Part shown: positions 22,437 to 56,585 of the stretch, one piece after another
Numbering within the stretch: the stretch's first letter is position 1
How the letters are laid out: each line of letters starts with the position of its first letter
Origin: a virus
IMG/VR virus record: IMGVR_UViG_3300027710_000023
Strand: one strand, 5' to 3'
Length of the DNA: 64,000 bases
Translations under genes and position numbers: made by a program
Notes under the pieces: model-generated
What the model saw: only the letters and a program-made list of their open reading frames with translations
Database searches by the model: none
What the model was told of the DNA's origin: nothing

Positions 22437-25400
22437 ATGGAAAACAACACTCCTCAAACCGGAGAAGAGTTGCGCCAACTGTTATTGACAGAAGGTAATA
22501 CTCCTACCCGTGAATCAAAAGTTGTTATTGGTTCTCAAACCAAACAACAACAACTTCAAAACACTACTAACAAACAAATCAGTGTTAGTAACGCCTCCAC
22601 TAATAAACAAATTAAATTAAAACAAGAAACTGATCCTACTGTACCAGTTAATACGGATTTAGTTTCTTATGTTGATTTTGCAAAGTCTTTTCCTGAAGGA
22701 ACATCATTAATAGATATTGATGTTGAATACTTACGTAATCAACGTGCTACTAATGAAAGAAAACAAGCTGAAATTAATCAAAACTATGAACGTAAACGTG
22801 ATCGTAGTGTTAGTGAGATTGCTTCAGATACTGGACTAAGTTTAGCTAAGAATGCTTCTTTAATTGGTGAAGCGGCTTTAGGCTTTGCTGATTTAGCTGG
22901 TTCTGGTGCTACAGATAACTTTGGTAATAAATTAAACCGAGCTATGGGTGCTGTGCTTGGTAAAGACACTGCTATTCCTAAAGCAGAAGATTTAGACAAA
23001 CAAATGTCTACCAAAGTACAAGCTCAACAAAAAAATATTCAAGATCGTGTTGCTGCTGTTAAGAGAGCAAATGAGACTGCTACAGCTGCTTTAGGTGATA
23101 AAGCTACTTGGTGGGATACAGCTAGTTCTGTTGGTTCAGAATTGAGTGAGAACTTAGTAGCATTAGTTGATAACCCATCTGCTTTAGCTGATGTTGCTCT
23201 TTCATCCGCTTTAGCTTTTACAGTACCTGCTGCTGTGTCAAAAGGTTTAACAAAAGCTGCAATTAAGAATGCTAAGCCTGAAGATATTGCTGAACTGATT
23301 GCTTCAGGCAAATTAGATAAGTTAGGTGAAGCCGGTGCAGTGATTGGTACTGCTGGACTGGAAGGTTTCTCACAAGCTTATTCTGAGAAAGAAAAAGTAC
23401 TGGAAACTGATCCAAGTGCATTACGTGAAACTTCTCCTAAGTTCAGAGAGTTAGAAGATAAGTATGGTACAGATAAAGCAAAACAAATGATTGCTGATTC
23501 TGTATTTCAATCTAACTTAGGATTAACTGCTGTATTAGCTGGTGTAGCAAGTAAAGTTACTGGTGCTGCTAAACTAGAGAAAGATTTATTTGTTGGTTCA
23601 GATACTTTAACTGCAATTGGCAAAGAAGCATTAGAAGAATCATTACAGTCAGCATCTAGTAATACAGTAGCTAACTTAACTGAAAAGACTTATGTAGATA
23701 AGAACCAGACATTAACAGAGAACTTAGGTTCAGCTGTTGCTACTGGATTAGCTGGTGCTGTAGTAAGTACCGCTGCTCTAAGTGGTACTGCTAATGCTGG
23801 TTCTGTATTAGCTGATAAAGTTGATAAGGGTTTAGCCAAAGTACAAGACCAAGCTACTAAGTTAGCTAATGCTCAACAAATTAATACTGAAGTAATGGAA
23901 GCAGCTACAACAGGTAACTTTGATAAATTAACTTCTAATACTAATTTTAGTATGGAAGAAAAAATCAATATGTTACTTAGTGATGATGTTATAGGTAAAG
24001 TACCAGTAGAACAGCAAGCTAAGATTGCTGAATTTGCTGGAAATTACTATGCTTCATTAGAAGCAGAAGATAAAGATAAATTATCTACTGAACAACAAGA
24101 GTTATCTCAGACAACTGAGTTAGTTAAAAATAAAATAGTTAAAGATCAGATTGATCCTATTATTGGTGATTTAGAAAATATTGATGATGAGAAAGAAGGA
24201 ACTATTGTTCGTGCTTTAGGCTCTTCACCTAATTCATTTACACAAGATCAATTAATTCAATTGGCTCCAGTAGTTTCTGAAAGTACTCGTAGTATTGTTG
24301 ATGCTCAAATAGAAGCTAATAAAGCTATTGAAGAAGTGGAAGCTATTCCACGTAAAGCAACACAACAAGTTAATCAGGATGTAATTAAAGGTGGTAAAGG
24401 CTTTTTAGGTTTAAATGATTATCGTAGACGCTTTGAAGCAGCTATTGGCACAGGTAATGTAGAAGCTGCAACTAAAGCAGCAGATATGTTAGCTAACCTT
24501 GCTACATTGCAAGCTGGTAAAGCAGCTGACATGACAGCATTGATGAAACTTCATAATAGTGAAGGTAATTCACAAAGATACCAAGAAGCCACTAAGAACT
24601 ACCAAACTAAATACAATTTGAAACCAACCGATTCTATTCATCGTGGTTCAGATAAATCAGGTATGGTCAGCCTCGTTGTAAGCGAAGCTAAGGCATTAAA
24701 CAAAGCTCATAAGGTGATGGCAGCGGTATTGGGCCACCAGTCTGGTAAGCCAGTACAGGCGCTTAAAGCACCTAAAGCTACTGTGATCCCTGAAGCTGTA
24801 AAAGAGCCTGTAGCGGTTGCTAAGCCACAGCCGGGCATTCCTATGGGTGAACCAAAAGAAGCTTCTGTAGCTACTCCGGTGCCTGCTCCTGTTGAGGAAG
24901 CTAAGCCAGTTGCCAGCAGCGAAGCTGCGACAGCAACGGAGGCGAAAGCTGACGAAACAACAGAACCAGTAAAGAAAGAATTATCTGAGGCTGAAGAGTA
25001 CGCAGATAGTTTTAGTAATGAAACTAAACCAGAAAAACCAACTACACCGCCTATTCATATTAGTATGAAAGAACGTGAAGATAGACAAAGAGAAGTCAAT
25101 AAAAAGAAAAAACGTTTACAGAAGAAGTTAGAACAGAAAGAAGAAGCACTTAAGAAAGCAGAAGAACGTAAAAATGAAATACGTGATCTGGTTAACAAAG
25201 ATGTAGTACAACCAGTTAATGAAGCTATTAAAGCTACTGGTAATTATGGTAATAAAACAAAATTACGTGATTCATTAGTTAAATTTGGTAATGATGTATT
25301 TACTGCATTAAAAACCAAAGGTATTGCTGAAGCGCGTAAACGTGTAGGTAATTATGCTCGTGGTGCCAAGGATGCATTAAATCGTACTGTTGATATGATA

Positions 25401-28400
25401 GAAACAGATTCTGATTATGTAGCTGGAGCTAATGCAGTTAAAAAAGTATTTGCTTTCAAAGCTAACAAATCAATAATCACTAATAAGATTTATGATAATG
25501 GTATTGCTCGTTTCTTTAATACAGTAGATAAAAATACTTTGTTTAATACTACAGGTAATTTAATTGAAGCTATTCAAGAACGTTCAGATGAGTTTGGTGT
25601 ACAAAGTAACTCAAGCCAAGAAGTATTAGATAATTTTGTAGATTTCCATAAAAAATTTAAAGCAAGTGTAGAGAAGTTATTTAAAGCTCCTTATACAGAA
25701 AAAGCAATGGTTGTTAATAATAACTTTATGGGTTATTTCACTAATGCTGAAGGTAAGTTAGATGATGCTATGGTTACTGCTATGGCAGGTGTAGCTTATA
25801 ACTATATGACCGAATCTGCTTCTGACTTAATAGATAACGACGATGATGCTATTCGTAATATCTTAAACATGGAAGATGAAGAAGAAGTATCACCACAAAT
25901 ACGTAATGCTATGCGTTATGTAGGTATTACTTTAAATGTAGTAGCTGAATCAATGGGTGATCAGTTAGTTAGTTCTATTGGTTTAAAATATAAAACCAAT
26001 ATCTCTGAAGCAGAAGAAGCAACAATGAGTGCTTCATTAGGTACGTTTATTGTATCTATGCTTGAAGATGCTGGCTTAATGAAATTAACAAGCTATGGTC
26101 GTGATGCTTATTTAGAAATGGGTTTTGATGAAGCTACTATAGATAAATTCTTACCTGAAAAGTTAAGTGGTTATTTACAAGTACATTATATCCGCCCAGT
26201 AACACAAATGTGGACAGCTACTGATGAAGCTACAGGTAAGTCATTTGAGTATGAAGATTTGATTGAATCTGTTGTTAAGTCAAAAGATTTGTTACGTGCT
26301 GAGAAAGATGATCCTGATAATATGATTGAAGGTTTTAAACCAGTTATTAATAACATCTTTGACATTGAGCCATTAGATAAAGAACCTTTACTTGTTCAAC
26401 CTAAAGAACAAGGTAAGAAAGTTAAACGTAGTCGTCAATCTCAATCAGTAAAACAGAACCAAGCTATTAATAAGATGAGTCAAGAACCTTGGCAATTAGC
26501 TGATACTTTTGAATCATATAACAAGTTATCTGTTGAAGCTAAACAAGCTATTGCAGGCTTTGCTACTGAAGAAGAGATTGCTCATGCTCATGTGAGTAAA
26601 CGTGAAACTATGGCAGCAAATAACAAGAGTATCACTCGTGTTATTAAAAAGTTTGATGACTTTGTTAAGAATGCTGATGGTAAAGATTTCTACTTACCTG
26701 TAGAGGTATGGAAGAACTTACGTATGGGTTATAAGAGCAGTACTATTAATCCACAGACTAATAAAATGATTCGTCGTTTAATTGGTTTGAAGAATGGTAA
26801 TAAGACTGTTGATTTAACTAATGATGCTCATATTAAGACTTTCCGTATGGCATTAATGGAAGCATTCGATATTAAACTGAAATGGGAAAACATTCAGAAT
26901 GATGATGCTTTAAATGCTAAGTTAACTATCCCAGAAGTTAAAGCAGCTGTTGATATGCTTGTTGCTGGTAATATGAGTGAACAGGTATTAGTTAATGCTG
27001 TGAAGAAGCTTGGTACTAATTATCATGCTTATCATGGTTTGATTGCTTATGCTAAATCAGTAAACAACAAAGTGTTTGAAACAGATCTGTTATTTGAATC
27101 AGATGGTGTCGCTAACGGTGTAGCAATTAGTTTATGGCAGTTTGCTGGTGCAAGAACTAAAGAACAGTTTAAACAAGCAATGCAACGTACAGGTGTGTAT
27201 GAAAATAATGAATATGGCTCATATTTAGAATACCAAGCACAACAAGGTAACATGGATTCATACCAAGTACTTGCTAGTCGATGGGGTGCTGCCGTAAATG
27301 AGTTAAAAGGCTATATCAGTAAATCTGATATTGAGTACACTACTTTGTTTGCTAAGTTTAAAACTGAGAAAGGTACAGCTAAGAAATTAGGTTATTTAAT
27401 TAATTTCTTTGGTTCAAATGAGAAAGCTTTAGAAGGTGTAAATGCAATTACATCTTTAGTAGGTGATTTGACTAATACATTAGGTGAAGTTGAAAAGCTT
27501 GGTCGTGATATGGCTAAGTCTCCTACAATGACATCTATTTATAATGCCGGCTTAGATTCTATTTTAGATAAAGTATCTGATGGTATTATTGAAAGAATGT
27601 ACGATCAATTAGAAAATGATGTTAATAAAGGAACTAATAACAAAGAACGTATCGTTAAAGCTTTAAACGTATTGTTTAATGCTAACTTTGATATGGATAG
27701 TCCATTAGAATGGCAACTGTCAAATATTAAAGATAAATACACAATTACTACAATGGAAGGTAAGCAAATTAAAGTAACTGCTGAAGAAGGCTTAAAGCAT
27801 GTTATTGCTATGGTGTATGGCCCTACATTAGATAATGCTATGTATTCTGTGTATGGTAGATTGCTTGATAATCGTCAAACAGCAAACCAAGCTATTACTT
27901 ATGCTTTCCGTGTGTTTAAAGAAATTTATGACATTGAAGAGAAAAATAAGTTAGCTGAGCTGGGTGTTAGTAGTTTATCTAAAGATCAACGTGATGAATT
28001 AATTAATCAACTCAAACCATACTGGCCTGTACTTGCTACTCCTACTTCTAAAGATAACAGTGAAGGTATTCTGTTATTTAAAGAGAAGAAGCGCAAAGGT
28101 TATAAAACTGATGCAAAAGCTAAAGCATTTGCTGTAGTACAAGAGTACGCAGGTAAAATTGGTAGTAACGGTAATAAGCAACGTACTGTCAACGCTAGTG
28201 CTATTGCTTTAGAAGAACCGGGTGCTAGTGGTATTCCTACTGCTGTTCAGATGTTGGATGCTCATACTATGTTTGGTGCATTGTCTGAAGTAGTTGGCTT
28301 GAACGTACATGATGCTATTGGCTCAACTATTGCAGATGCTGATAATAATACCACAGCAATAAACAAAGCTTATAACCAAATGGTTATGGGTAATTATAAC

Positions 28401-31400
28401 ATTGAGACTTCTGTAGAGTTAATGTTAGATAATGCAATTAAAGCAGCACAAGCATATGGTATTGAAGATAAATTAAACAGAATGACAGATAGATATGATC
28501 AAACACTTAATCCAACTGAAGTAAAAGATCAGATTGAATTAAATATTGAAATGTCTAATAAGTTACGTTCATCTTTAAAAGTTAGTACCATATCTCAATA
28601 TGATAAACCTAATGGTGCTTATTTAACTGGTAATAGTGTTATTGATACTGATGAAGTAGTTGTTGAAGAAGTTGTACAAGATGTGTTTAAGGAAATGAAA
28701 GATTTGTTAGGTTCTCAGGATGTAACTAAAGGAACTGAAGACTTTTCACAAGCACAGACTTATAACGCAACTGTTGATAACTCAATGGATATTTTTAATC
28801 AACTGGAAACATTAGGTAGTGTAGAAGACAATACAGAACATAAAGAACACTTACGTTCTGTTTTATCAGAAATGATTAATAAAGTATTACAACCTACGTT
28901 AGTTGTGTTAGGTACTGTAGATGAAGCTACTCGTGGTAGATTCATGCAGGATGTTAATGGTAAACGCCAAATTGAAATTGCTACAAGTGTTGGTGATTTT
29001 GAGTACGGTTTATCTGCACAAGAAGTTTATGTACATGAAATGATCCATAACATTATTGGACATGCTTTATCATCAGGTGCTGTAGAAGTAAAACGTATTA
29101 CTGCTATGTTCAACGCAGTAAAAGATTTAGTGGATAGTGGTGACATTACTTATAAAGATTTTTTATCTTTGGATCAAGCTGGTAATACTATCAGTAATCC
29201 AACACAAGAACAGATTGATGATGCTACAGATAGATTAAATTATATCTTTAATAACACAACGGTACGTGTACGTAAGATTACTGATCCCGCTACAGGAATT
29301 GTTACTACTACTAAGACAAATAGTGCGTTAGAAGAGTTTGTTGCCTTTGGTACTACTAATGCTGCCTTTATGAAAGCATTAAATAAACCAAATGTACTTA
29401 TGGCTCTTAAAACTAAATTAAGACCAGAACACAGTAAAACTAAATCAAATACATGGTTAATCCAGAAATTTGACAGCATAGTTAATGCATTACTGGACAT
29501 GATTCAGTTTGCTATGGATAAGCTGACTGACCGGGTGTTGAACATTGCCGGGAAGAAAGTAGATGCTCAGTTGGCAACGCTTGTATCGGCTCTGGCTGGC
29601 GTTCAGGTGAAACATCAAAGCAAAGTGATGCAAGGTATAGATGCGGTGTTAGCGTTCAGCACAGCCTCAACCGCTAAGCTTAAAGCATGGGTAGTAGCAC
29701 CGATTGTTGCAGCTGCTAATAGCTCACGATTCAAAAACAGCAAGAATACTGTTGTTCGTGTGACTACTAAGGCAATTGCTGTTGCTGGTAACAGTAAAGC
29801 AGGTACTTGGGCTAAAGCGTTACGTCAAACACGTAGTCGTTTAAATATGACCCAAGATAACTTTGCTTTGTCGTTAGCTCAGGAAATTGCAGGTGTTACA
29901 TCTAAAAATAAACACTGGCATAAGTTATTACGTTTATCTAATAAACATATTGACCAATTACGTAAGCATGTAGCAACTACTGTTAAGAATACTCTTAATG
30001 AGCAGTACAGCTACACTTTAAATAAAGAAGAGAAAGCTGCTATTACTAAAGCAGTATTAAAAACTGATTTAACTGCGTTACTGGAATATGGTTACACTTA
30101 TGATGAAATCTATGATTTATTAAAAGATGAATCCAAGTTAACTAAAGTAATTGAAGATAAACAAGCTTTAATTAAGAAAACGTATACTCAAGGTGTTGGT
30201 CGTTGGGTATTAGACCAAAGTACTGGTTTATCTAATAAGATGATCACTGGAACTGAGATTCGTGGTAATCAAGGATTGAATGCTTATCAAATTGCTAACG
30301 GCTTTGGTAATCCAATTATCAAGAAACGTATGCAAGATAATAAGGTAGACAACAACCAATTAGAAAAAGATGTTGATGAATTAGTTACTTTAATGGCTCT
30401 GAACTTAGTTGATTCTAAAGTTAAAGCTAACGTGGTATCTATTTTTGATAAAGAAGTAGCTTCTGGTAAAACACTAAACAACAATGGTTTGAGTTTTACT
30501 ATGGAACATCACCGTAACTACAAAGTAGATTCACGTAATGAAAACTTTGATGGTAATCCAGCATTGATGCGTAAAGGGTATGTCAAAGAAATTACTGATC
30601 CTAATATTGCAGTACAAGTAGTTGACGTAACTGATTTTGTTAAAATTGCAGAGTTAGTTAAAGCAGGATACAAACCAACTCAACAATATATCTATGGTGA
30701 TGTGCGTGATCCTAATGGATCAAAAATGGAGATATACCGTAACACTGCTGCTAAGTTAGCAACTAACTCTGCTGGTATTGTATCCCTGACTTCTAAACAA
30801 AGCATGGGTACAGATATACTGGATGGTTTTGTTAACAAAGATACTATGAGTACTAATATTGGTTTGGATGCTTATTTAAATATCCAAGCAATTAATAAAG
30901 ATATGGAAATTGCAAGTAACGTAGGTATGACTGCATCAGGTAATACTAAGACTGTATTGTTAACACCTGTATTTAACTTAGATGGTGATGTAGTAAATTA
31001 CCGGTATGAAATGTCAGATGCTAATAAAGAAAAGTTGTTAAAAAGACACAATTCTTTTGATGACATTTTATCTGGTATGACTGCACAAATTAAAGATAAA
31101 GCTAATACTAAAACAATTAACAGTGTTGTAGTTGAGACTTTAAAGCAAGAGTTTGATGCAGAGTTTGTTAAGTCACCTAAAGAGTTTGTGTTAGTTGGTA
31201 TTAACAGTACTGATCCAGCAATGAAAGAGTTATGGTTTACTCTTCCAGAAGAAATGCGTATTGAAGCTACTAAGTTATTTGGTACTAAGGGATTATATGT
31301 TAAGAAGAAAGACTTACGTTTAATCTTTGGTTTCCGTAAGTTTACTGTGGGTGAGTGGGCTGAGAAGCTACAGGAACAAAGTAAAGTACAGAACAAGATG

Positions 31401-32357
31401 CTTAACTACGCAGCAAGACATGTACTTGAGTTGTTACAGAAACCTTTAGTACATCAAGGTGAAGAAGTATGGCAAGAAATTGTACGTATGGCTAAAGATA
31501 CTATTGTTGTTAAGACAGGTGCTACTTTAGTTGGTAACGTTATCTCTAACTTTGCAGTACTGATGACTGAAGGTGTTTCTTTCAGTGATATTCTTAAGTA
31601 CCACTCTATTGCATGGAAAGGTGCTAATAAATACCAGAAAGATAAAAACAAGTTGGATAGTTTGAAGTTGGAATTGGAAAACAAAAATAATCTGTCTGTT
31701 ACTGAAGCTGCCAAGATGAAACGTGAGATTGCTTTACTGGAAAACAGTATTAGCACAAACCCAGTTTATTCATTGGTTCAAGAAGGTATTTATCAGACGA
31801 TTGTTGAAGATGTGGACATGGATGAGGATACATTCAGTTATCAGAGTAAATTGGAAAAGGTAACTTATCCACTTACATCTAAAATACCTGATGTTATCAA
31901 AGACATGAGTAAGATTCTGTTTGTAACACATGATACGCAACTTTATAAAGCAATGCGTAATGCTACACAGATTAGTGACTTTGTTGCTCGGTTTACGTTG
32001 CATCAACACAACTTAACCAAACAAAAAATGAGTGAGGAAGATTCTATCAATAATATTGTAGAAACATTTGTTAACTATGACTTACCAACACATAAGAGTA
32101 TTCAGTATCTGAATGACATGGGTTTAGTTATGTTTAGTAAGTTCTTTATACGTATTCAGAAAGTTATCCTAAGACAGTTAACAGAAAGAACTGGTAACGT
32201 GTTGTCATTGTTCTTAGTGCAACAAATCTTAGGAATAAACATTGCTGATATATTTGATGGTGCAGTTGTGATGCCAAATACGATTGAAGCTAAGTTTGCT
32301 GATCCATTGGATCATGTAGACACTTTATTTGGGATTCACCTTTTTAACAACATCTGA
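22437..32357 (+). CDS. virion-encapsidated RNA polymerase (N4 vRNAP-like giant protein, 3306 aa)
   Basis: Single 9.9-kb ORF. The central region carries T7-like RNAP motif-C-like VHDAIGS and LFESDGVANG. Size and position match the N4 gp50 class. Confidence 0.7.
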   Translation: MENNTPQTGEELRQLLLTEGNTPTRESKVVIGSQTKQQQLQNTTNKQISVSNASTNKQIKLKQETDPTVPVNTDLVSYVDFAKSFPEGTSLIDIDVEYLRNQRATNERKQAEINQNYERKRDRSVSEIASDTGLSLAKNASLIGEAALGFADLAGSGATDNFGNKLNRAMGAVLGKDTAIPKAEDLDKQMSTKVQAQQKNIQDRVAAVKRANETATAALGDKATWWDTASSVGSELSENLVALVDNPSALADVALSSALAFTVPAAVSKGLTKAAIKNAKPEDIAELIASGKLDKLGEAGAVIGTAGLEGFSQAYSEKEKVLETDPSALRETSPKFRELEDKYGTDKAKQMIADSVFQSNLGLTAVLAGVASKVTGAAKLEKDLFVGSDTLTAIGKEALEESLQSASSNTVANLTEKTYVDKNQTLTENLGSAVATGLAGAVVSTAALSGTANAGSVLADKVDKGLAKVQDQATKLANAQQINTEVMEAATTGNFDKLTSNTNFSMEEKINMLLSDDVIGKVPVEQQAKIAEFAGNYYASLEAEDKDKLSTEQQELSQTTELVKNKIVKDQIDPIIGDLENIDDEKEGTIVRALGSSPNSFTQDQLIQLAPVVSESTRSIVDAQIEANKAIEEVEAIPRKATQQVNQDVIKGGKGFLGLNDYRRRFEAAIGTGNVEAATKAADMLANLATLQAGKAADMTALMKLHNSEGNSQRYQEATKNYQTKYNLKPTDSIHRGSDKSGMVSLVVSEAKALNKAHKVMAAVLGHQSGKPVQALKAPKATVIPEAVKEPVAVAKPQPGIPMGEPKEASVATPVPAPVEEAKPVASSEAATATEAKADETTEPVKKELSEAEEYADSFSNETKPEKPTTPPIHISMKEREDRQREVNKKKKRLQKKLEQKEEALKKAEERKNEIRDLVNKDVVQPVNEAIKATGNYGNKTKLRDSLVKFGNDVFTALKTKGIAEARKRVGNYARGAKDALNRTVDMIETDSDYVAGANAVKKVFAFKANKSIITNKIYDNGIARFFNTVDKNTLFNTTGNLIEAIQERSDEFGVQSNSSQEVLDNFVDFHKKFKASVEKLFKAPYTEKAMVVNNNFMGYFTNAEGKLDDAMVTAMAGVAYNYMTESASDLIDNDDDAIRNILNMEDEEEVSPQIRNAMRYVGITLNVVAESMGDQLVSSIGLKYKTNISEAEEATMSASLGTFIVSMLEDAGLMKLTSYGRDAYLEMGFDEATIDKFLPEKLSGYLQVHYIRPVTQMWTATDEATGKSFEYEDLIESVVKSKDLLRAEKDDPDNMIEGFKPVINNIFDIEPLDKEPLLVQPKEQGKKVKRSRQSQSVKQNQAINKMSQEPWQLADTFESYNKLSVEAKQAIAGFATEEEIAHAHVSKRETMAANNKSITRVIKKFDDFVKNADGKDFYLPVEVWKNLRMGYKSSTINPQTNKMIRRLIGLKNGNKTVDLTNDAHIKTFRMALMEAFDIKLKWENIQNDDALNAKLTIPEVKAAVDMLVAGNMSEQVLVNAVKKLGTNYHAYHGLIAYAKSVNNKVFETDLLFESDGVANGVAISLWQFAGARTKEQFKQAMQRTGVYENNEYGSYLEYQAQQGNMDSYQVLASRWGAAVNELKGYISKSDIEYTTLFAKFKTEKGTAKKLGYLINFFGSNEKALEGVNAITSLVGDLTNTLGEVEKLGRDMAKSPTMTSIYNAGLDSILDKVSDGIIERMYDQLENDVNKGTNNKERIVKALNVLFNANFDMDSPLEWQLSNIKDKYTITTMEGKQIKVTAEEGLKHVIAMVYGPTLDNAMYSVYGRLLDNRQTANQAITYAFRVFKEIYDIEEKNKLAELGVSSLSKDQRDELINQLKPYWPVLATPTSKDNSEGILLFKEKKRKGYKTDAKAKAFAVVQEYAGKIGSNGNKQRTVNASAIALEEPGASGIPTAVQMLDAHTMFGALSEVVGLNVHDAIGSTIADADNNTTAINKAYNQMVMGNYNIETSVELMLDNAIKAAQAYGIEDKLNRMTDRYDQTLNPTEVKDQIELNIEMSNKLRSSLKVSTISQYDKPNGAYLTGNSVIDTDEVVVEEVVQDVFKEMKDLLGSQDVTKGTEDFSQAQTYNATVDNSMDIFNQLETLGSVEDNTEHKEHLRSVLSEMINKVLQPTLVVLGTVDEATRGRFMQDVNGKRQIEIATSVGDFEYGLSAQEVYVHEMIHNIIGHALSSGAVEVKRITAMFNAVKDLVDSGDITYKDFLSLDQAGNTISNPTQEQIDDATDRLNYIFNNTTVRVRKITDPATGIVTTTKTNSALEEFVAFGTTNAAFMKALNKPNVLMALKTKLRPEHSKTKSNTWLIQKFDSIVNALLDMIQFAMDKLTDRVLNIAGKKVDAQLATLVSALAGVQVKHQSKVMQGIDAVLAFSTASTAKLKAWVVAPIVAAANSSRFKNSKNTVVRVTTKAIAVAGNSKAGTWAKALRQTRSRLNMTQDNFALSLAQEIAGVTSKNKHWHKLLRLSNKHIDQLRKHVATTVKNTLNEQYSYTLNKEEKAAITKAVLKTDLTALLEYGYTYDEIYDLLKDESKLTKVIEDKQALIKKTYTQGVGRWVLDQSTGLSNKMITGTEIRGNQGLNAYQIANGFGNPIIKKRMQDNKVDNNQLEKDVDELVTLMALNLVDSKVKANVVSIFDKEVASGKTLNNNGLSFTMEHHRNYKVDSRNENFDGNPALMRKGYVKEITDPNIAVQVVDVTDFVKIAELVKAGYKPTQQYIYGDVRDPNGSKMEIYRNTAAKLATNSAGIVSLTSKQSMGTDILDGFVNKDTMSTNIGLDAYLNIQAINKDMEIASNVGMTASGNTKTVLLTPVFNLDGDVVNYRYEMSDANKEKLLKRHNSFDDILSGMTAQIKDKANTKTINSVVVETLKQEFDAEFVKSPKEFVLVGINSTDPAMKELWFTLPEEMRIEATKLFGTKGLYVKKKDLRLIFGFRKFTVGEWAEKLQEQSKVQNKMLNYAARHVLELLQKPLVHQGEEVWQEIVRMAKDTIVVKTGATLVGNVISNFAVLMTEGVSFSDILKYHSIAWKGANKYQKDKNKLDSLKLELENKNNLSVTEAAKMKREIALLENSISTNPVYSLVQEGIYQTIVEDVDMDEDTFSYQSKLEKVTYPLTSKIPDVIKDMSKILFVTHDTQLYKAMRNATQISDFVARFTLHQHNLTKQKMSEEDSINNIVETFVNYDLPTHKSIQYLNDMGLVMFSKFFIRIQKVILRQLTERTGNVLSLFLVQQILGINIADIFDGAVVMPNTIEAKFADPLDHVDTLFGIHLFNNI

Positions 32358-49896: not shown

Positions 49897-51444
49897 ATGA
49901 CTTGGGCGCTAAAGTTCAATCCCGAAGGTAACGCTGGTAATGATGTTGTTACACTAGGTACTGCGCTAGTTCCGGGAATAGGTGTTGGTACTTCAAATTG
50001 GGCTATCGAATTTCGTATGAAGTTAGATGCTCTGCCTGCGTCTGGTAACTGGTATATTCTTGGTTCCGGCTCTGCATCACAAAATGCAGGTTTTGTTATA
50101 CGTTCTGCGTCTGGATCTGGTGTATTAGCTTTAGTTAGTGCAGGTACACATATCTCAGCAGCAGACTCTCCTGTTGGATTTTTAATAGCTGATGGGGAGT
50201 TTCATACATATCGAATTGTACGTGTTGCTGGCACATCTATTAGTTTTTACAGAGATGGCGCTACAATACAGTTAAATAAATCATGGGCTACTACAAGTAA
50301 CTTTACACTTAGTCTTAACCGTTTTGGTCGAGGTAGTATCAGCGGTACTGGTGGTGTTACTCCAATGGAGTTGGAGTGGTTTGACGCTACCGAATTTGAT
50401 ACTACCAATGGTCAGCGATGGGAATCAGATTTAGCAAATGGTTCTGGTACTGTTTGGCCTACAGTTAGTGGTAATAACCAAGGTACATTGGTTAACTTTA
50501 CTGCTGGTGCTGAATGGGTATTTTATGGTAGTACACCTGAGTTTACTGCTGTTGTAAGTGCAACATATGGATCATATACAGCTACAGTTGCAGCAGATAG
50601 CACAAGACCAACCAATTCACTATCTATTGCTGCACAGTATGCAAGTTATATTGCAGCAGTAAACAGTACCAATACAAAACCAGTTAAGACAATTAGTATT
50701 AATACACAATACCCAGCTTATACAGTATCTGTAAATGCTACAGGTGGTGTACCTGCTTATAATGTGAGTATTAATTCTAATTACCCTATTTATGTAGGTA
50801 GTGTTGTAGGAACAAATACTAAACCTGTTAAAACAAGTCAGATAAGTGCTACATACGCTACGTATACAGCAAATGCTACTTGTAGTAACACAAAACCAAT
50901 TAAAACAATAAGTATTAGTAGTCAGTATCCTGTTTTTAGTGTTAGTGTTGTAGCCACAAAACAGGCTAGTGGGCATACAGCTAGTATATTAGCAACATAC
51001 CCTAATTACACTGGTTCAGTTAATAGTACAAACACTAAACCAATTAAAACAGTAATAGTAACAGGAATATATCCTAGTTATATAGTAAATGTAGTTGGTA
51101 CAAATAACAAACCTGTTAAAACAGTTATTGTATCTACTACTTATAGTAGTTATACAGCAAGTGTAGTTGCTAACGTTGTTAGAAATAATGTTATATCTAT
51201 AAATAGTACTTATCCAAGATATACAGCTAATGTTGTATGTGGACAAGAAATACCAGATAAAACATTAACTATTAATTCAACATATCCAAAGTATATTGGT
51301 ATAGTTGTATTAGGTGATTTTGTGAATATGCCTTACCGTGGTGGTAAGGGAGCACATTTGGTTATCTCATCTGGTTCCAGAGAGATTAAAATTAAAGACA
51401 AAAGTCGTAATGTTAAATGGAGAGTAGAAAATGCCCGGTTATAA
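49897..51444 (+). CDS. lectin-like (concanavalin A/LamG-like) protein with about ten tandem 22-aa repeats
   Basis: The N-terminal about 200 aa are beta-sandwich-like (WAIEFRMKLDA...FHTYRIVRV...FYRDGA). Residues about 221-460 are degenerate repeats of the form YxxYTAxVxxTNTKPVKTxxI. Confidence 0.5.
   Translation: MTWALKFNPEGNAGNDVVTLGTALVPGIGVGTSNWAIEFRMKLDALPASGNWYILGSGSASQNAGFVIRSASGSGVLALVSAGTHISAADSPVGFLIADGEFHTYRIVRVAGTSISFYRDGATIQLNKSWATTSNFTLSLNRFGRGSISGTGGVTPMELEWFDATEFDTTNGQRWESDLANGSGTVWPTVSGNNQGTLVNFTAGAEWVFYGSTPEFTAVVSATYGSYTATVAADSTRPTNSLSIAAQYASYIAAVNSTNTKPVKTISINTQYPAYTVSVNATGGVPAYNVSINSNYPIYVGSVVGTNTKPVKTSQISATYATYTANATCSNTKPIKTISISSQYPVFSVSVVATKQASGHTASILATYPNYTGSVNSTNTKPIKTVIVTGIYPSYIVNVVGTNNKPVKTVIVSTTYSSYTASVVANVVRNNVISINSTYPRYTANVVCGQEIPDKTLTINSTYPKYIGIVVLGDFVNMPYRGGKGAHLVISSGSREIKIKDKSRNVKWRVENARL
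50557..51277 (+). repeat. degenerate tandem repeat array, about 66-bp unit, about 10 copies, coding
   Basis: Repeated aaaccagttaagacaat / acaaaaccaattaaaacaat cores seen in the DNA. Matches the protein repeats. Confidence 0.5.
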
Positions 51445-51781: not shown

Positions 51782-52104
51782 GTTGTAATACAGCTGTTAT
51801 TCGTCCTTATCAATGGGATAAACCCATTAAGCAAGGTAAAGTTGATCTATATTCTATTGATTTAACTGATTGGCTTGGAGAAGATGAATTAGGAACAGTT
51901 GTAGCAACATCAACAAATAATTTAGTAACTATTGTTGGTTCAGGAAAAGCAGCAAACGAGGCAGGGCAAGCTAACAAGTGTGCTACTGTCACTGTAGCAG
52001 GTATAACGCCCGGACTTGATGAGATACGCTTTAGCGTAGCCACAGCAAGCACTGGGCGTACAGACGGGATGTCAATACAACTGATTGTATCCAAGTATCC
52101 ATAA
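51778..52104 (+). CDS. hypothetical beta-rich protein
   Basis: 108-aa ORF, the last in the plus-strand island. Confidence 0.4.
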   Translation: MSCNTAVIRPYQWDKPIKQGKVDLYSIDLTDWLGEDELGTVVATSTNNLVTIVGSGKAANEAGQANKCATVTVAGITPGLDEIRFSVATASTGRTDGMSIQLIVSKYP

Positions 52105-52129
52105 GCCCCTTACGGGGCTTACTTTATTT
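52103..52129 (+). terminator. rho-independent terminator at the convergent junction
   Basis: aagcccc ttac ggggctt followed by actttattt. Confidence 0.55.
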
Positions 52130-53002
52130 CACTTCAATAAAAGGCAATGGGCCGGAATTACCGGTGTAAACTGGTAACTTACCATCCCACTTATCAATAG
52201 CATTTAATTGAACAACTGATGGGTTTTCACGAATAGCTTTACCTTTTAAGGCAATTGCTTCGGCTTCGGCACTTGCTAAAGTTAATTTAGCGTCTGCTTC
52301 GCCTTTTGCTTGTTCACGAGCTTTATCAGCTTCAGCTTTAACTTGTGCTACTTCATTTTCACGTTGTAGTGTTTTTTGTGTAGCGGTAATTTTAGCATTG
52401 ATTGCTTCAGTAACTTGTTGTGGTACACCGATATCACCAAGTAAAAATACTTGTTCTACATTAATACCAGCTGGTTTAAGTTTAGCTGTAACAATGTCAT
52501 TTACATCTTTAAGTAACTGTACTTTACCTTCACCATAGATGTATTCTACTTTGTATTTAGCAGCAGCTGCAATAAATGCATCTTGTACGATACGACGTAC
52601 ATAGCTGTCACTAATTTCTACAATACCTTTACGAAATTTCTGAAAGATGTCACTTACTTTAGTTGGATCAACTGCAAAAGCAATACCGACATCAGCCCAT
52701 ACTTTCATGCCTTCAGATGTTTGAAAGCGGATAGCTTCGTCTGTAGAACTATCTGCACAGCCTTTACCTTCAACTGGTGTAGCTGTCCATTGACAGTTTT
52801 GAGTAAAAGTAGGAAATACATACAGTTCTTCATTAACACCGATCCAGTAACGTCCCGGAGTTAATTCTTGTGTAGATACACCTTTTTCTGAACCAAGTAA
52901 GTTAACTTTAATACCTACATGGCCTGATTCTACACGACTACAAGCAGTAGCAGCTAAAGCAATTACACCTAGAAGTACAGCACGTAACAATTTATTCTTC
53001 AT
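52124..53002 (-). CDS. SPFH/band-7 (stomatin/HflC-like) lipoprotein
   Basis: N-terminal MKNKLLRAVLLGVIALAATAC signal with lipobox-like TAC. SPFH body with C-terminal Ala/Glu/Lys-rich coiled coil. Confidence 0.6.
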   Translation of the reverse strand: MKNKLLRAVLLGVIALAATACSRVESGHVGIKVNLLGSEKGVSTQELTPGRYWIGVNEELYVFPTFTQNCQWTATPVEGKGCADSSTDEAIRFQTSEGMKVWADVGIAFAVDPTKVSDIFQKFRKGIVEISDSYVRRIVQDAFIAAAAKYKVEYIYGEGKVQLLKDVNDIVTAKLKPAGINVEQVFLLGDIGVPQQVTEAINAKITATQKTLQRENEVAQVKAEADKAREQAKGEADAKLTLASAEAEAIALKGKAIRENPSVVQLNAIDKWDGKLPVYTGNSGPLPFIEVK

Positions 53003-53210
53003 GGTTTTTCTCTTCTGTTGATGGATCAATTATTTTTGGAAACATTACTTTTACTGCAATGTGAATTAAACACAGACAGTAAGCAATCATTAATACAAAT
53101 CCTGAAAGTACCATAATGGTATCTTTTTCAGAAATTAAGTAGGGTAAAACTACACCAAACATAGCAATGGTTGATATAGCAATTAGTAAAGCTAAATATA
53201 CATATTTCAT
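52992..53210 (-). CDS. small two-TM membrane protein
   Basis: 72-aa hydrophobic ORF. Overlaps the SPFH start by 11 nt. Confidence 0.35.
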   Translation of the reverse strand: MKYVYLALLIAISTIAMFGVVLPYLISEKDTIMVLSGFVLMIAYCLCLIHIAVKVMFPKIIDPSTEEKNHEE

Positions 53211-53827
53211 TAATCACCCCAAGGTAAGTTAGAAGTTATTGTTGTTGATCCATTTGTATTAAGTTTAATTGAACCTGATTTAATTTGTTCATTCCAGATA
53301 TTCATATCTCTGTTATAGAGATCTTCTCTTAAGAAATCATCATAAGTTCTTTCAGTATCTAATACAAAGGTAGTTAGTTTGGTTTTAATACCGCTAAAAA
53401 CCTTATAAGTTATTAATCCCCATGCAGTGAGCATAGTTAAAATACTTAATGCCGGTATAATACCAGATGTTAAAAGAAGTGTTCCTGTTAATCCTGTAAT
53501 AGCGATTAAAGAAAACAATGTATAAAACACAACAGTTAAAAATATTTTTAAAGTCATGTCTTCTACAGGATCTTGTTTATTTGGTATATGGGTTACTATG
53601 TTCTTTCGAGATAAGTGTTCAATGAATTTACGTATACGTTTATTGTTATCTGTATCAGAATCAATACGTAAACGAGTCATGTACTTGTTTACTGTTTCTA
53701 CGCAGTTAGGGCACATTACTTTGACTGTATTGGTTTGATATGTTTCAACAATAACAGATACATCGTTTTTAGGTATATGTTCTTTACAACAGTCACATGT
53801 TACAAGTGATTTAATCATATGCACCAA
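53210..53827 (-). CDS. zinc-ribbon protein with C-terminal TM helices
   Basis: CDCCKEH...CPNC in the N-terminus. Two hydrophobic helices near the C-terminus. Confidence 0.4.
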   Translation of the reverse strand: MVHMIKSLVTCDCCKEHIPKNDVSVIVETYQTNTVKVMCPNCVETVNKYMTRLRIDSDTDNNKRIRKFIEHLSRKNIVTHIPNKQDPVEDMTLKIFLTVVFYTLFSLIAITGLTGTLLLTSGIIPALSILTMLTAWGLITYKVFSGIKTKLTTFVLDTERTYDDFLREDLYNRDMNIWNEQIKSGSIKLNTNGSTTITSNLPWGD

Positions 53828-54510
53828 CTAGGTTTAATTATACCGTAAATATCATACAATCGCTGATCCCAAGGTACAGGCATATTATAAGGAAATGTAC
53901 TAAGATAAGGTCTAGCCATAAATCCAGATAAATAACTTTCTTGTATGTTTAAACGAGCATGTATAAATGATAAATAGGCTATTTGTACTGTTGGATCTGT
54001 ATAAGTGTAATTTCCGTAGCAATTTACTGATTTGTGTAAAGACATATTACAGAAGAAACTTTCAAACTGTTGAAAATGTTTAAACAGATCATCAGTCCAA
54101 TAACAATAAAACAATTCAATAAATGAACATATTTTATCTACTAGTGCTGATACGGGAGTTTGCATGGATTTTTGTAATCCCATATCTTGATTAAGTTCTT
54201 CAATTAACTTAGTTAATTCTTCACTGAGTGTTAAAAGCTCCCCGTATTTAGATGTACTGTCATCAAATGAATCAATTCTTTCTTCAGCTCTTTTTAAGAA
54301 ATAAGAATATTTAGTTTCTAAAGTTGGATCGCCAAGCAAGTCACCAACTTCTTTTAAATTTTTTAAAATATCAGAAGAACTGATTTTGTCTAAGTGGTGA
54401 TATAAAGCTTCATTATTACTAGCAACTTCTTTTTTTAAATTAACTAAGCTAGTCAATGTAACATCGATAAGATAACAGATTTCAGGTACTGTTCTTGAAG
54501 AATTAAGCAT
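53815..54510 (-). CDS. hypothetical protein
   Basis: 231-aa ORF. Confidence 0.4.
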   Translation of the reverse strand: MLNSSRTVPEICYLIDVTLTSLVNLKKEVASNNEALYHHLDKISSSDILKNLKEVGDLLGDPTLETKYSYFLKRAEERIDSFDDSTSKYGELLTLSEELTKLIEELNQDMGLQKSMQTPVSALVDKICSFIELFYCYWTDDLFKHFQQFESFFCNMSLHKSVNCYGNYTYTDPTVQIAYLSFIHARLNIQESYLSGFMARPYLSTFPYNMPVPWDQRLYDIYGIIKPSWCI

Positions 54511-54704
54511 TAATCATCTCCCGATAAAACCCATACAACAATACACATACAAGCAAATGCTAACCAAGGTTCATTAATGTAAAACCAATAAATAATATTT
54601 AACATTCCAAAAGTAGCTACTTTGAATTTCATTCTGCACCGCCTTGCTGTTTGGCTTCTAAATAATCCTGAACGGAGCATTCCGGGTTGCTTGAATAGAT
54701 ACAT
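54510..54704 (-). CDS. small membrane protein
   Basis: 64-aa ORF with one TM helix. Overlaps its neighbour. Confidence 0.3.
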   Translation of the reverse strand: MYLFKQPGMLRSGLFRSQTARRCRMKFKVATFGMLNIIYWFYINEPWLAFACMCIVVWVLSGDD

Positions 54705-54880: not shown

Positions 54881-55230
54881 GCACCGCCTTGCCGGATGCG
54901 CTCGGCATATCTGTCAGCGTCGGAAAATACCATGCCTTCTTCGCTCTTTAGTCCCATCCACGACAGACACGCCGCCACGTAACCAGCCCGCCCAGCCTCA
55001 ACGCGCACCTGCGCAAGACAGGCGGCTGGTGTTGGCAGTTCTTTTTCGAAATTTAAAAGAAACGCTGGAATGTTAAGTTCATCAACTCCGCGTATTTGCA
55101 AGTCGAGCTTGTAGCCGTGAATAAGCATGTTTTTTAACACCTCAACCTGCGCGGCCAGTTCTTCATACGTTGGTTTAGTCATTTTATTGCTCCAATGTTT
55201 TAATAAAATCAAAATACTCTTTAGAAGCAC
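54877..55230 (-). CDS. hypothetical protein with GC-rich 3' half
   Basis: 117 aa, ending RQGGA. The coding DNA from about 54880 to 55080 is conspicuously GC-rich. Confidence 0.35.
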   Translation of the reverse strand: MLLKSILILLKHWSNKMTKPTYEELAAQVEVLKNMLIHGYKLDLQIRGVDELNIPAFLLNFEKELPTPAACLAQVRVEAGRAGYVAACLSWMGLKSEEGMVFSDADRYAERIRQGGA

Positions 55231-55528
55231 GAACTACGTTAGATGCAGTTAAGGATTTAGCGTATTCAGGATTAACTAAATTAAAGTAATAGCGCATTAC
55301 ACATAATGCTTGATGATCTTTTTCATATGATGTACATCCACAATAAGTACAATCAATAGCTATTAGATTAATCCGAGGTTCATCATTACTATATAAAAAA
55401 CGTACTCTTTTTGTTTTTACTAATATAGAAAAAGAGTGTACTTTTCCACAAATACCACAAGTATGTATGACAATATTGTCTGTATTAGGCTTGGGATTGT
55501 TGTTGGAGTCTGAGTTGACTGTTTTCAC
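55184..55528 (-). CDS. zinc-ribbon protein
   Basis: HTCGICGK...CTYCGC (two CxxC pairs). Confidence 0.35.
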   Translation of the reverse strand: MKTVNSDSNNNPKPNTDNIVIHTCGICGKVHSFSILVKTKRVRFLYSNDEPRINLIAIDCTYCGCTSYEKDHQALCVMRYYFNLVNPEYAKSLTASNVVRASKEYFDFIKTLEQ

Positions 55529-55682
55529 TTTCTAACTCCGCAATACGTTTAGCTAAAGTAGCATTGCTAATTTGAGCATCAGCAACTTCTTTTAACTTTA
55601 ATACAAAGTCAGTATTAGGATGTTCGTTGTAAACATTAACTAAACGACCAGCAATCCAATGTAAAAAATCTTTATTTGTCAT
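55485..55682 (-). CDS. hypothetical small helical protein
   Basis: 65-aa ORF. Confidence 0.3.
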   Translation of the reverse strand: MTNKDFLHWIAGRLVNVYNEHPNTDFVLKLKEVADAQISNATLAKRIAELESENSQLRLQQQSQA

Positions 55683-56107
55683 TAGATGCCTCTTATTGTT
55701 TTACCTGATGCTCTACCACCAGCTGTATAAGCAAGACTGTCAACGTAATCATCTTTAATATAATAAAAATTTGAATTGGTGTTTTCATCAATACCAAGTA
55801 AAGTTTTTACAGTTTCAACGTATGAATCAAACGTTTTGCGTACATCTACAGGATCATTAGCTTTATGTGGGTATTTATTAAGAGTTAGCCATCTTGACTT
55901 AAGTTGCCACTTAACAAGTACACCTTTAGTACCACACTTTGTACAAGTATGCACATATTTACCTAACTGTGGCCCAAAATAAGGTTGTGTTACAGTAGGT
56001 ACGTAAATTGCATCGTTGTAATTACAATGACGACAATTATGTAACACATACAGTAGATTACTGGGGTGTTGTGAAACACGTTTATAAATATAAGATTCTT
56101 TACGCAT
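55682..56107 (-). CDS. zinc-ribbon protein
   Basis: CRHCNY...CTKCGTKG (two CxxC pairs). Confidence 0.4.
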   Translation of the reverse strand: MRKESYIYKRVSQHPSNLLYVLHNCRHCNYNDAIYVPTVTQPYFGPQLGKYVHTCTKCGTKGVLVKWQLKSRWLTLNKYPHKANDPVDVRKTFDSYVETVKTLLGIDENTNSNFYYIKDDYVDSLAYTAGGRASGKTIRGI

Positions 56108-56375
56108 GTTATGTCCTTAAAATTGAATTGGTGGAGTGAAGCCCTCTACACAACAGTAGGAACCACTTCTGTTATGTAAACATCACTCCACCGAAAAAGA
56201 ATTGTTGGTTGTGGATACCACTAACCAAGTTAAACTCTAGCTTGCAGCTACTTAAGTACTTATTTTTCTTATTGGCTCATGTGTACTGTCTAACTCTTTA
56301 ACAATATAAATAGAAGCCCCCTAAACATTGTTTGGGAGAACATTAATTGAAAAATTATGTCTAGGAGACTTTTAT

Positions 56376-56585
56376 TTATTCTGTTAGTAACTCTTTAAGT
56401 CGTAACTGTCTTAATTTTCTAGTTCTACATCTACTTCTACAGTAAATATGATTCTTGTTACGGGATAAAAACCATTCTTGACATATAGGACATTGTGTAA
56501 GCGTTGAACCACAATAAATACACTTACCATTGTGTGTAACGTGTTTCTGTGACATTTCCTTTTTACCTTGGCTCAATTGATCCAA
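56376..56585 (-). CDS. zinc-ribbon protein
   Basis: CIYCGS...CPIC followed by HIYCRSRCR. 69 aa, basic. Confidence 0.45.
   Translation of the reverse strand: MDQLSQGKKEMSQKHVTHNGKCIYCGSTLTQCPICQEWFLSRNKNHIYCRSRCRTRKLRQLRLKELLTE

Follow-up and report, generated by a model that had tools for sequence, protein, structure and literature searches.

Why does a phage encode an SPFH (Band_7) lipoprotein, and which neighboring genes belong with it? The question is raised by a 64,000-nucleotide stretch of DNA from the IMG/VR virus record IMGVR_UViG_3300027710_000023, referred to here as the window. A first-pass annotation, made from the letters alone, had described in it an SPFH protein with a lipoprotein-type signal, a co-transcribed 72-residue protein with two transmembrane (TM) helices, likened to the NfeD-like partners of bacterial SPFH proteins, and a zinc-ribbon protein with two TM helices; as possible roles it had named remodelling of membrane microdomains, superinfection exclusion, and envelope protection. 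All three open reading frames (ORFs) exist, on the minus strand (Table 1). SPFH cages, including those of HflK/C, prohibitin, stomatin, flotillin, and erlin, have been in the focus of cryo-electron microscopy since 2022. The window gene itself is an ordinary member of a large, widespread, uncharacterized phage family; tblastn finds homologs in 779 phage records, phage N4 among them, and the rarity implied at first does not hold. What the comparisons below indicate is that the 72-residue protein is a real, dedicated partner of the SPFH protein. We propose, with a probability of roughly 0.5, that an SPFH cage with a rim of hairpin partners conditions or protects the host cytoplasmic membrane; the structural part of this proposal is stronger than the physiological part.

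The program-listed ORF for the SPFH gene (52124..53029) opens with a TTG at 53029, but the real start is likely the ATG at 53002, from which the N-terminus reads MKNKLLRAVLLGVIALAATAC-SRVESGHVGIKVN. The Pfam Band_7 model (PF01145), the check that had been proposed, matches residues 32-234 at 90.4 bits, far above the gathering threshold of 23.6 (E=1.9e-25), and bears out the assignment; the protein also matches phrog_200, "lipoprotein", at E=1.2e-85. An AlphaFold 2 (AF2) monomer model, with a predicted local distance difference test score (pLDDT) of 80, consists of an N-terminal anchor helix, a beta-rich SPFH domain, and a single 65-residue helix at 195-259. The C-terminal tail is modeled at low confidence and is conserved, as KWDGKLP...PF in the window and KW(D/N)GxLP...PF in the family. 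In Foldseek searches, the model aligns over its full length with prohibitin, HflK/C, erlin, stomatin, flotillin, and QmcA (E=1e-14 to 1e-8, 13-18% identity), so that every solved cage-forming SPFH family is matched, without a clear favorite (2.8e-14 for prohibitin, ~1e-13 for HflC/K, 4.5e-8 for QmcA-YbbJ). By AF2 and Foldseek, the succession of domain, long helix, and C-terminal oligomerization segment that marks the SPFH superfamily is present. Sequence-profile similarity to solved proteins is marginal, at 1e-4 for QmcA, the best PDB match, and 1e-3 for HflC. Scores against the NCBIfam equivalog models for HflC and HflK are 22.2 bits against a cut-off of 134.4 (TIGR01932), 21.9 against 427 (NF008259), and 17.7 against 159.4 (TIGR01933), so far below the cut-offs that the protein must be placed in a distinct SPFH subfamily and is not an HflK/C ortholog. 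There is one SPFH gene per locus, in the window as at each of the 169 loci examined.

The small gene just upstream ends within the SPFH gene: its stop codon (52994-52992) lies beyond the SPFH ATG (53002-53000), an overlap of 11 nt. The 72-residue product has two hydrophobic helices and matches phrog_1130, "membrane protein", at E=1.2e-9. Among 5.8 billion proteins it has just three matches, all on contigs of close relatives. In nearly all of 80 IMG/VR loci with SPFH relatives (down to 26% identity) there is a two-TM ORF of 55-85 residues that ends between -14 and +15 nt from the SPFH start. A hidden Markov model (HMM) seeded from ten of these partners was run over all ORFs of 35 residues or more in every locus and in the whole window. 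In its initial round, this first model matched only ORFs directly upstream of SPFH genes. After iteration, it produced 113 matches among 11,363 ORFs, 109 of which abut SPFH; the remaining four are two ORF-calling artefacts at the SPFH gene itself and two partners, in E. coli and Shigella, separated from SPFH by an insertion sequence (IS) and lying ~770 nt upstream. Bacterial genomes contribute 80 of the loci, and 69 of those have exactly one partner match, always on the same strand as SPFH and, in 67 cases, directly abutting it, the two others being the IS-split loci. A second model, seeded from divergent partners with the motif E-Y-x-I-S-R, shares 23 matches with the first, and the two models together detect partners at 141 of the 169 SPFH loci, which come from phages, viral contigs, and bacterial genomes. 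The claim of a co-transcribed two-TM partner is therefore upheld by the overlap in the window and by pairing that is general across loci.

The two proteins also vary together. Partner subtype follows the type of SPFH anchor: P-type partners accompany a lipobox or a single TM helix in 79 loci, while E-type partners accompany an N-terminal TM hairpin in 47. Pairwise distances among partners correlate with those among the SPFH proteins (Mantel r=0.83, a value reached by 0 of 999 permutations; r=0.87 within the P-type). Comparison at the sequence level thus shows partner and SPFH protein to be inherited as one cassette. All-vs-all clustering found no third conserved neighbor across lineages, only antisense artefacts and lineage-specific genes.

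Several individual loci deserve comment. In Shigella flexneri SFBU1023 (L151) and E. coli ECMA0423 (L152), an IS of ~770 bp lies between the partner and SPFH genes at ~4230-5000, and the apparently non-adjacent position of these partners is explained by its insertion. The same IS sequence occurs in 5044 of 5426 E. coli genomes; the locus of E. coli E110019 (L169) is intact, with the usual 4-nt overlap of partner and SPFH genes. In the P1-like phage MH422554.1, an unannotated ORF (L087:2784-3020, ~63838-64074 of the phage) directly upstream of a "putative SPFH domain protein" is recognized by the partner HMM at E=4e-9; annotation of the small partner gene is probably missing from other records as well. 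In five IMG/VR contigs of a single-TM anchor sub-lineage (L023-L027), the upstream gene encodes a one-TM protein of ~137 residues instead of a hairpin, which may be an alternative or fused type of partner.

The partner is not an NfeD protein. The 72-residue protein has no match to the NfeD family (PF01957) in Pfam at E<=0.1, and that identity was rejected. Nor do 27 diverse partners match NfeD, or have any Pfam family in common, and a partner profile searched against PDB finds no chain at E<=10, YbbJ of the QmcA-YbbJ complex included. Because these searches are without a match, and because 72 residues are too few for an oligonucleotide/oligosaccharide-binding (OB) fold, the NfeD-like partner first suggested is not supported by homology; the protein is at most a functional analog of NfeD. 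What the partners share is a topology and a turn. By the positive-inside rule, 108 of 108 unique partners are predicted to have both termini in the cytoplasm (N-in/C-in), with a mean count of Lys plus Arg of 2.0 in the N-terminal flank, 0.6 in the loop, and 3.3 in the C-terminal flank. The outward turn contains the only strongly conserved motif, [P/E]-x-[L/I]-[I/V]-S-[A/R/S]-x-[S/D]-[T/N], in which Ser is found in 96 of 108 sequences; in the window, this conserved extracytoplasmic turn reads P-Y-L-I-S-E-K-D-T.

On which side of the membrane does the SPFH domain lie? The window protein begins with K2, K4, and R7, followed by the hydrophobic core AVLLGVIALAA and the lipobox A-A-T-A-C21. This arrangement fits the PROSITE PS51257-type pattern as coded, with Cys inside the required positions 15-35, and Cys21 is invariant in an alignment of 54 homologs (52-92% identity), so that the proposed lipoprotein signal appears sound. 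Across the family, the anchor is interchangeable. A lipobox, a single signal-anchor TM helix, or an N-terminal TM hairpin may precede the same domain start, ER(V/I)xxGHVG(I/V)KVN, and it follows that the domain is extracytoplasmic and, in the TM-anchored lineages, tethered to the cytoplasmic membrane. In Enterobacterales, an Asp at position +2 acts as the canonical Lol-avoidance signal, which retains lipoproteins in the inner membrane. All lipobox copies from that order have acidic or aromatic-acidic residues after the lipid-bearing Cys: C-D in E. coli, Shigella, Salmonella, Yersinia, Kluyvera, Buttiauxella, Pantoea, the Klebsiella phages KpCHEMY26 and Pylas, and the P1-like phage; C-E in Xenorhabdus, Morganella, Chimaeribacter, and phage KE23; and C-Y-D in N4. 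The window protein, like its homologs in Pseudomonas and Dyella, has Ser at +2, which is not interpretable outside the enterics. Because the anchor types, the Asp or Glu at +2 in enteric copies, and the conserved turn of the partner all point to the same side, the most coherent placement of the SPFH domain would be the periplasmic face of the cytoplasmic membrane, in the topology of HflK/C, and not the outer membrane.

This placement bears on one other explanation, in which the SPFH protein is an outer-membrane lipoprotein that masks receptors, in the manner of Llp or Cor, or a host-facing antigen or virulence lipoprotein, and the 72-residue ORF is an unrelated neighbor. The Ser at +2 in the window would suit it, and annotators of phage Piffle call the homolog there an "outer membrane lipoprotein". 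The HflK/C-like protein PM0222 of a P. multocida prophage, which may belong to the same subfamily, is a virulence factor in outer-membrane vesicles and acts via TLR1/2 (PMC9872710). Yet the enterobacterial copies carry Asp or Glu at +2, relatives without a lipobox are TM-anchored in the cytoplasmic membrane, the linkage to the partner is far above chance, and a 30-kDa cage-type fold is unlike the small lipoproteins that block receptors. We consider this explanation very improbable, and annotations of the SPFH gene as an outer membrane lipoprotein, such as that in Piffle, should be corrected.

As a side observation, the SPFH proteins of the window and of its relative L083 have two extra Cys residues (70 and 82) in or beside a 13-residue insertion (NCQW...GKGCADS), which are missing from most homologs. 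A disulfide would fit the predicted periplasmic compartment.

The closest counterparts of the window pair are those of N4-type phages. In vB_EcoP_3HA13, which belongs to the species Enquatrovirus N4, a 68-residue ORF overlaps the gene for an "SPFH domain protein" just after the RNA polymerase II (RNAPII) genes, so that the pair is present in the type phage of the family; these genes (tags _190 and _200) are presumably gp19 and gp20 of N4. Their SPFH lipoprotein is homologous to that of the window (39-53% identity across compared pairs), as is the two-TM partner, and the turn motif, the order of the genes, and the overlaps of stop and start codons agree. Other pairs of phrog_1130 and phrog_200 genes compared were those of Piffle, KpCHEMY26, Seunavirus KE23, Hali, and the P1-like MH422554. 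The window differs from the N4-type pairs in having Ser, rather than Asp, Glu, or Tyr-Asp, after the lipid Cys, in the insertion that holds the second Cys of its SPFH domain, and in two additional coupled genes upstream, for a zinc-ribbon/TM protein and a 231-residue protein.

Better-studied SPFH systems are more distant. The human prohibitin PHB1/2 cage (PDB 8rrh, 9o9z) is the top structural match (E=2.8e-14) and has a similar length and domain order, but it is a mitochondrial hetero-oligomer of eukaryotes with 14-17% identity, an N-terminal TM anchor, and no hairpin partner. The QmcA-YbbJ complex of E. coli (PDB 8z5g; fold match E=4.5e-8) and other SPFH-NfeD operons resemble the window in pairing an SPFH gene with that of a small, co-oriented membrane protein, and it is plausible, by analogy, that a bundle of partner helices associates with the cage. 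The window partner, however, lacks an NfeD/OB domain and detectable similarity to YbbJ, and its gene precedes and overlaps the SPFH gene, unlike the order in SPFH-NfeD operons. QmcA faces the cytoplasm, whereas the family described here is predicted to face outward.

The HflK/HflC-FtsH complex of E. coli (PDB 7vhp, 7wi3, 9cz2) suggests a different function for the pair, that of a mimic whose periplasm-facing cage captures or displaces the host protease FtsH and so alters the turnover of phage and host membrane and regulatory proteins. With this complex the window protein would share its SPFH domain, long helix, C-terminal cap, and orientation toward the periplasm, and Foldseek aligns the two over their full length (E ~1e-13 to 1e-10, identity 15-18%). 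HflC and HflK are also the best, though weak, NCBIfam matches; JGI annotators name homologs "regulator of protease activity HflC"; and in lambdoid prophages and phage Hali the pair sits where lambda keeps its FtsH inhibitor cIII. Several observations nevertheless make such mimicry unlikely. The equivalog scores are far under the cut-offs (22 bits against 134 and 427), and prohibitin, erlin, and stomatin match equally well. HflK and HflC are two SPFH paralogs with TM anchors, whereas the window has a single SPFH gene, hence no K/C pair, together with a lipid anchor and a hairpin partner. Finally, strictly virulent phages and viruses of Gram-positive bacteria and haloarchaea commonly carry the pair.

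The 779 phage records are spread over many hosts and groups: the Kayvirus phages of Staphylococcus (275), phages of Pseudomonas, Erwinia, Klebsiella, Escherichia, Burkholderia, Bacillus, and Caulobacter, haloarchaeal viruses, and others. Giant eukaryotic viruses also carry SPFH folds. In virulent phages, the pair lies among non-structural genes of early or middle type, after RNAPII in N4, beside tRNAs, ThyX, and rIIA in Piffle, and beside genes for a ligase, a nucleoside triphosphate pyrophosphohydrolase (NTP-PPase), and an exonuclease in KE23. Since its genomic position varies from phage to phage, the partner-SPFH cassette is mobile.

In the Kayvirus phages, the small membrane-protein gene mbpV directly precedes mbpS, whose product is a homolog of ~24% identity, and the two lie between lysK and tgl in the lysis module, in a Gram-positive host with no periplasm. 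MbpV has 102 residues, one TM helix, and a basic tail, and it is not recognized by the partner HMMs. The location of mbpV-mbpS between holA-lysK and tgl favors a role as a helper in lysis timing or secretion, in which the microdomain organizes holin, endolysin, or Sec export, or delays membrane collapse and so lengthens the latent period. N4 is known for delayed lysis, which counts for this explanation too. The Kayvirus authors suggested, as speculation only, that MbpS aids the Sec-dependent export of Tgl (PMC7150955). The pair is not beside recognizable lysis genes in the window, N4, Piffle, or KE23, however, and its chromosomal copy in Dyella has no lysis context, so that we hold a general role in lysis or secretion to be improbable.

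In temperate settings (E. coli E110019 and Pseudomonas phage Hali), the pair lies downstream of a cI-like repressor and upstream of the integrase. The corresponding accessory (immunity/pL) region of lambda holds rexAB, sieB, cIII, and kil. A location in this region, downstream of the repressor, would suit superinfection exclusion at the cytoplasmic membrane, with cage and hairpin blocking DNA translocation or the periplasmic entry of competitors and protecting the host in lysogens. Phage lipoproteins are classically exclusion factors, and the PHROG category of the partner is "moron, auxiliary metabolic gene and host takeover". In the N4-type 3HA13, the gene directly upstream of the pair (L085:2377-2691) is homologous to gene 17 of P22 (Pfam GP17, "superinfection exclusion", E=1e-55), and a GP17 homolog stands beside the SPFH gene in PhiSH19 and Cba120 (Ackermannviridae, Vi01-like). 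This adjacency in N4 and Ackermannviridae counts toward exclusion, but neither the window nor the majority of loci have a GP17-type gene. Matches to the PADLOC-DB defence models are at noise level only (E>=0.016), which leaves room for an exclusion function not yet described; the literature searched reports no phenotype; and Rhodanobacteraceae carry the pair stably on the chromosome, outside any prophage. Exclusion as the function of the pair thus seems rather unlikely.

The chromosomal version is found in ~25 genomes of Dyella and other Rhodanobacteraceae, at one syntenic locus between ribonucleotide reductase and a divergent operon encoding a BlaI-type repressor (Penicillinase_R, E=3e-25) and a BlaR1-type M56 sensor-protease. 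In Dyella jiangningensis this stretch is L113:1848-4395, and the BlaI/BlaR1-type operon adjoins the pair divergently in ~24 other Rhodanobacteraceae loci as well. The operon may be the regulator of the pair, and its adjacency hints, by association only, at regulation by envelope stress. Since it resides in these chromosomes, the pair must work without other phage genes; its occurrence shows that it is a stand-alone cellular module outside phages and points to an envelope-related, cell-autonomous role.

These observations can be brought together in a working model of a membrane-conditioning scaffold. The last two genes of a coupled minus-strand operon would form a self-contained mobile cassette for a lipid-anchored SPFH scaffold and a TM-hairpin partner of 55-85 residues. 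The SPFH protein, to judge from its sequence, would pass to the periplasm, receive a lipid at Cys21, and stay on the outer surface of the cytoplasmic membrane, where, by analogy with every solved SPFH family, it would assemble into rings or cages by means of the 65-residue helix and the conserved C-terminal tail. Translational coupling would supply the partner in fixed proportion, and its N-in/C-in insertion would present the conserved turn at the same membrane surface. The partner could then serve as a membrane-spanning rim or nucleator of the cage, as the TM parts of NfeD or HflK/C do elsewhere. In the least certain step, the resulting microdomain would protect or compartmentalize the host cytoplasmic membrane during infection, an accessory "envelope-conditioning" function that involves no block of outer-membrane receptors. 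The zinc-ribbon/TM protein and the 231-residue protein would be lineage-specific neighbors in the operon, outside the cassette.

A number of points weigh against this model. Oligomerization, localization, and partner binding are predicted for family members from sequence and analogy, and the role in membrane protection is a guess from context. Retention of the window protein in the inner membrane is extrapolated from relatives, and in an enteric host its Ser at +2 would predict sorting to the outer membrane. The Mantel correlation demonstrates co-inheritance, with which physical contact is compatible but by which it is not proven. The HMMs detect no partner at about 17% of SPFH loci, so the partner may not be obligatory; the Kayvirus pair belongs to a lysis module, and its MbpV escapes the partner HMM. 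The BlaI/BlaR1 adjacency in Dyella, finally, is no more than an association.

Table 1. Features of the SPFH operon and its downstream end in the window
Feature	Position	Strand	Remarks
GC-rich hairpin (TAAGCCCC-TTAC-GGGGCTTA)	52102..52121	.	between SPFH stop and convergent plus-strand gene ending 52104
SPFH/Band_7 lipoprotein gene	52124..53002	-	292 aa; Pfam Band_7, phrog_200
Signal peptide and lipobox	residues 1-21 (nt 53002-52940)	-	within SPFH gene
SPFH domain	residues ~22-190		AF2 model, Pfam
Two-TM hairpin partner, 72 aa (phrog_1130 family)	52992..53210	-	overlaps SPFH start by 11 nt
Cys-rich two-TM protein, 202 aa	53210..53818	-	ATG 53818; coupled both sides
231-aa protein, lineage-specific	53815..54510	-	coupled, upstream member of gene string
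40-aa single-TM mini-protein (MKFKVATFGML...), probable	54510..54632	-	weak phrog_8459 match, E=1.7e-3

Five genes, from the 40-residue ORF to SPFH, are joined by ATGA, TAATG, or 11-nt overlaps. The 40-residue ORF overlaps an upstream 83-residue ORF (ATGA) and the 231-residue gene (TAATG); the 202-residue gene shares its start with the end of the 231-residue gene (ATGA), and its TAA overlaps the partner ATG (TAATG). The GC-rich hairpin marks the end of the operon. A terminator scan recognized it as intrinsic in the plus-strand orientation alone, and no T-run follows the hairpin on the minus strand. A scan for sigma70 promoters gave fewer matches than in shuffled sequence; N4-like phages transcribe with their own RNA polymerases.

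The 202-residue protein, described at first as a zinc-ribbon protein further upstream with C-terminal TM helices, is directly adjacent to the partner gene, and its two TM helices are central (~90-136), followed by a conserved tail of ~65 residues that is predicted to be cytoplasmic. It is a putative zinc ribbon by its Cys pattern only (C8-x-C10-C11...C36-x-x-C39), in which Cys8, 10, 11, 36, and 39 are all kept in three relatives; profile scans gave no family match, and its AF2 model (pLDDT 51) is unusable for fold search. The suggestion that it belongs to the module fails, as a search of 5.8 billion proteins yields just three homologs, each in a close relative, and none of the 166 SPFH loci outside the phage lineage of the window contains it. 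No SPFH locus outside that lineage has homologs of the 202-residue, 231-residue, or 64-residue ORFs. The 231-residue protein likewise has no family match and is conserved only in L083 and L084, which keep the gene order 231 aa, zinc ribbon, 72 aa, SPFH. With homologs confined to close relatives, the 202- and 231-residue proteins were rejected as components of the cassette.

Compared with L083, all four genes are under purifying selection. The ratio of non-synonymous to synonymous substitution rates (dN/dS) is 0.13 for SPFH, which is 92% identical, and 0.31-0.35 for the three upstream genes (0.31 for the 231-residue gene), which are 65-69% identical. Across 52124-54510, dS is 0.37 in SPFH against 0.57-0.92 in its coupled neighbors, a difference that could reflect codon constraint or a recent recombination of SPFH between related phages. 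Recent horizontal import was rejected on composition: third codon positions have a GC content of 17-20% throughout the four genes, and it is amino-acid content that raises the overall GC of the SPFH gene. Further upstream in the same operon (55184-56585, minus strand) are genes for three small paired-CxxC proteins of 141 (CRHC/CTKC), 114 (CGIC/CTYC), and 69 residues (CIYC/CPIC), none with a family match. Counting the 202-residue protein, the operon is unusually rich in putative zinc-ribbon mini-proteins.

The window comes from a divergent member of the N4-like phages (Schitoviridae), whose hallmark is a giant virion RNA polymerase (vRNAP); the assignment follows from an ORF of 3306 residues at 22437..32357 on the plus strand, vRNAP-like by size, and from N4-like relatives. 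The one window protein compared (45601-46797) is only ~37% identical to those of N4-like phages of Klebsiella, Vibrio, Pantoea, and Pseudoalteromonas. Megablast of the 51-56 kb region against 50,697 phage genomes gave 0 matches; the phage is novel at the DNA level, and its relatives were therefore identified through protein searches. Same-strand genes that flank the operon are of nucleotide- or DNA-metabolism type (MazG-like NTP-PPase, a polynucleotide kinase-like domain, SSB, RuvC, Sak4), which places the operon in the non-structural part of the genome. A tRNA scan found no tRNA.

Two other window proteins were noted. A 515-residue protein (49897-51444, plus strand) that adjoins fibre-adaptor-like genes contains about ten tandem 24-residue repeats, with a Y-[PAS]-x-[YF] motif every 24 residues from residue 248 to 463 and, in some units, TNTKP(V/I)KT. 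Tandem Repeats Finder detected no DNA tandem array in its gene, the repeats being present at the protein level only, and it is probably a repetitive shaft of a tail fibre or decoration. The other is encoded by a lone plus-strand ORF of 238 residues between minus-strand blocks (56638-57354); its N-terminus is hydrophobic and rich in Gly (GGSDGFGGGMGGGLLLGLLLG), the rest is Gln-rich and resembles a coiled coil, and it has no informative family match.

Full-text literature searches found no functional characterization of the family; when a Schitoviridae phage was described in 2026, the authors wrote that why the gene is present "remains unclear" (PMC13239085). Pairing with a non-NfeD hairpin, inner-membrane sorting signals, and a chromosomal version linked to BlaI/BlaR1 were not found described in the literature searched. 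It is possible, though doubtful, that the pair constitutes a distinct, undescribed class of SPFH and partner, a non-NfeD, outward-facing, envelope-stress-regulated cellular scaffold that hundreds of unrelated phages have captured. If so, the captured scaffold would armor or partition the host membrane against membrane-depolarizing abortive-infection effectors or superinfecting phages.

To a specialist, the SPFH gene by itself is unsurprising; the useful result is the definition of the cassette, together with the correction of records in which its small partner ORF is often missed. The subfamily is encoded by some 780 sequenced phages, among them the model phage N4 and the therapeutic Kayviruses of Staphylococcus. 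The family is experimentally tractable, and the strict pairing turns a vague "lipoprotein" label into a defined two-component system that is directly testable in E. coli and N4.

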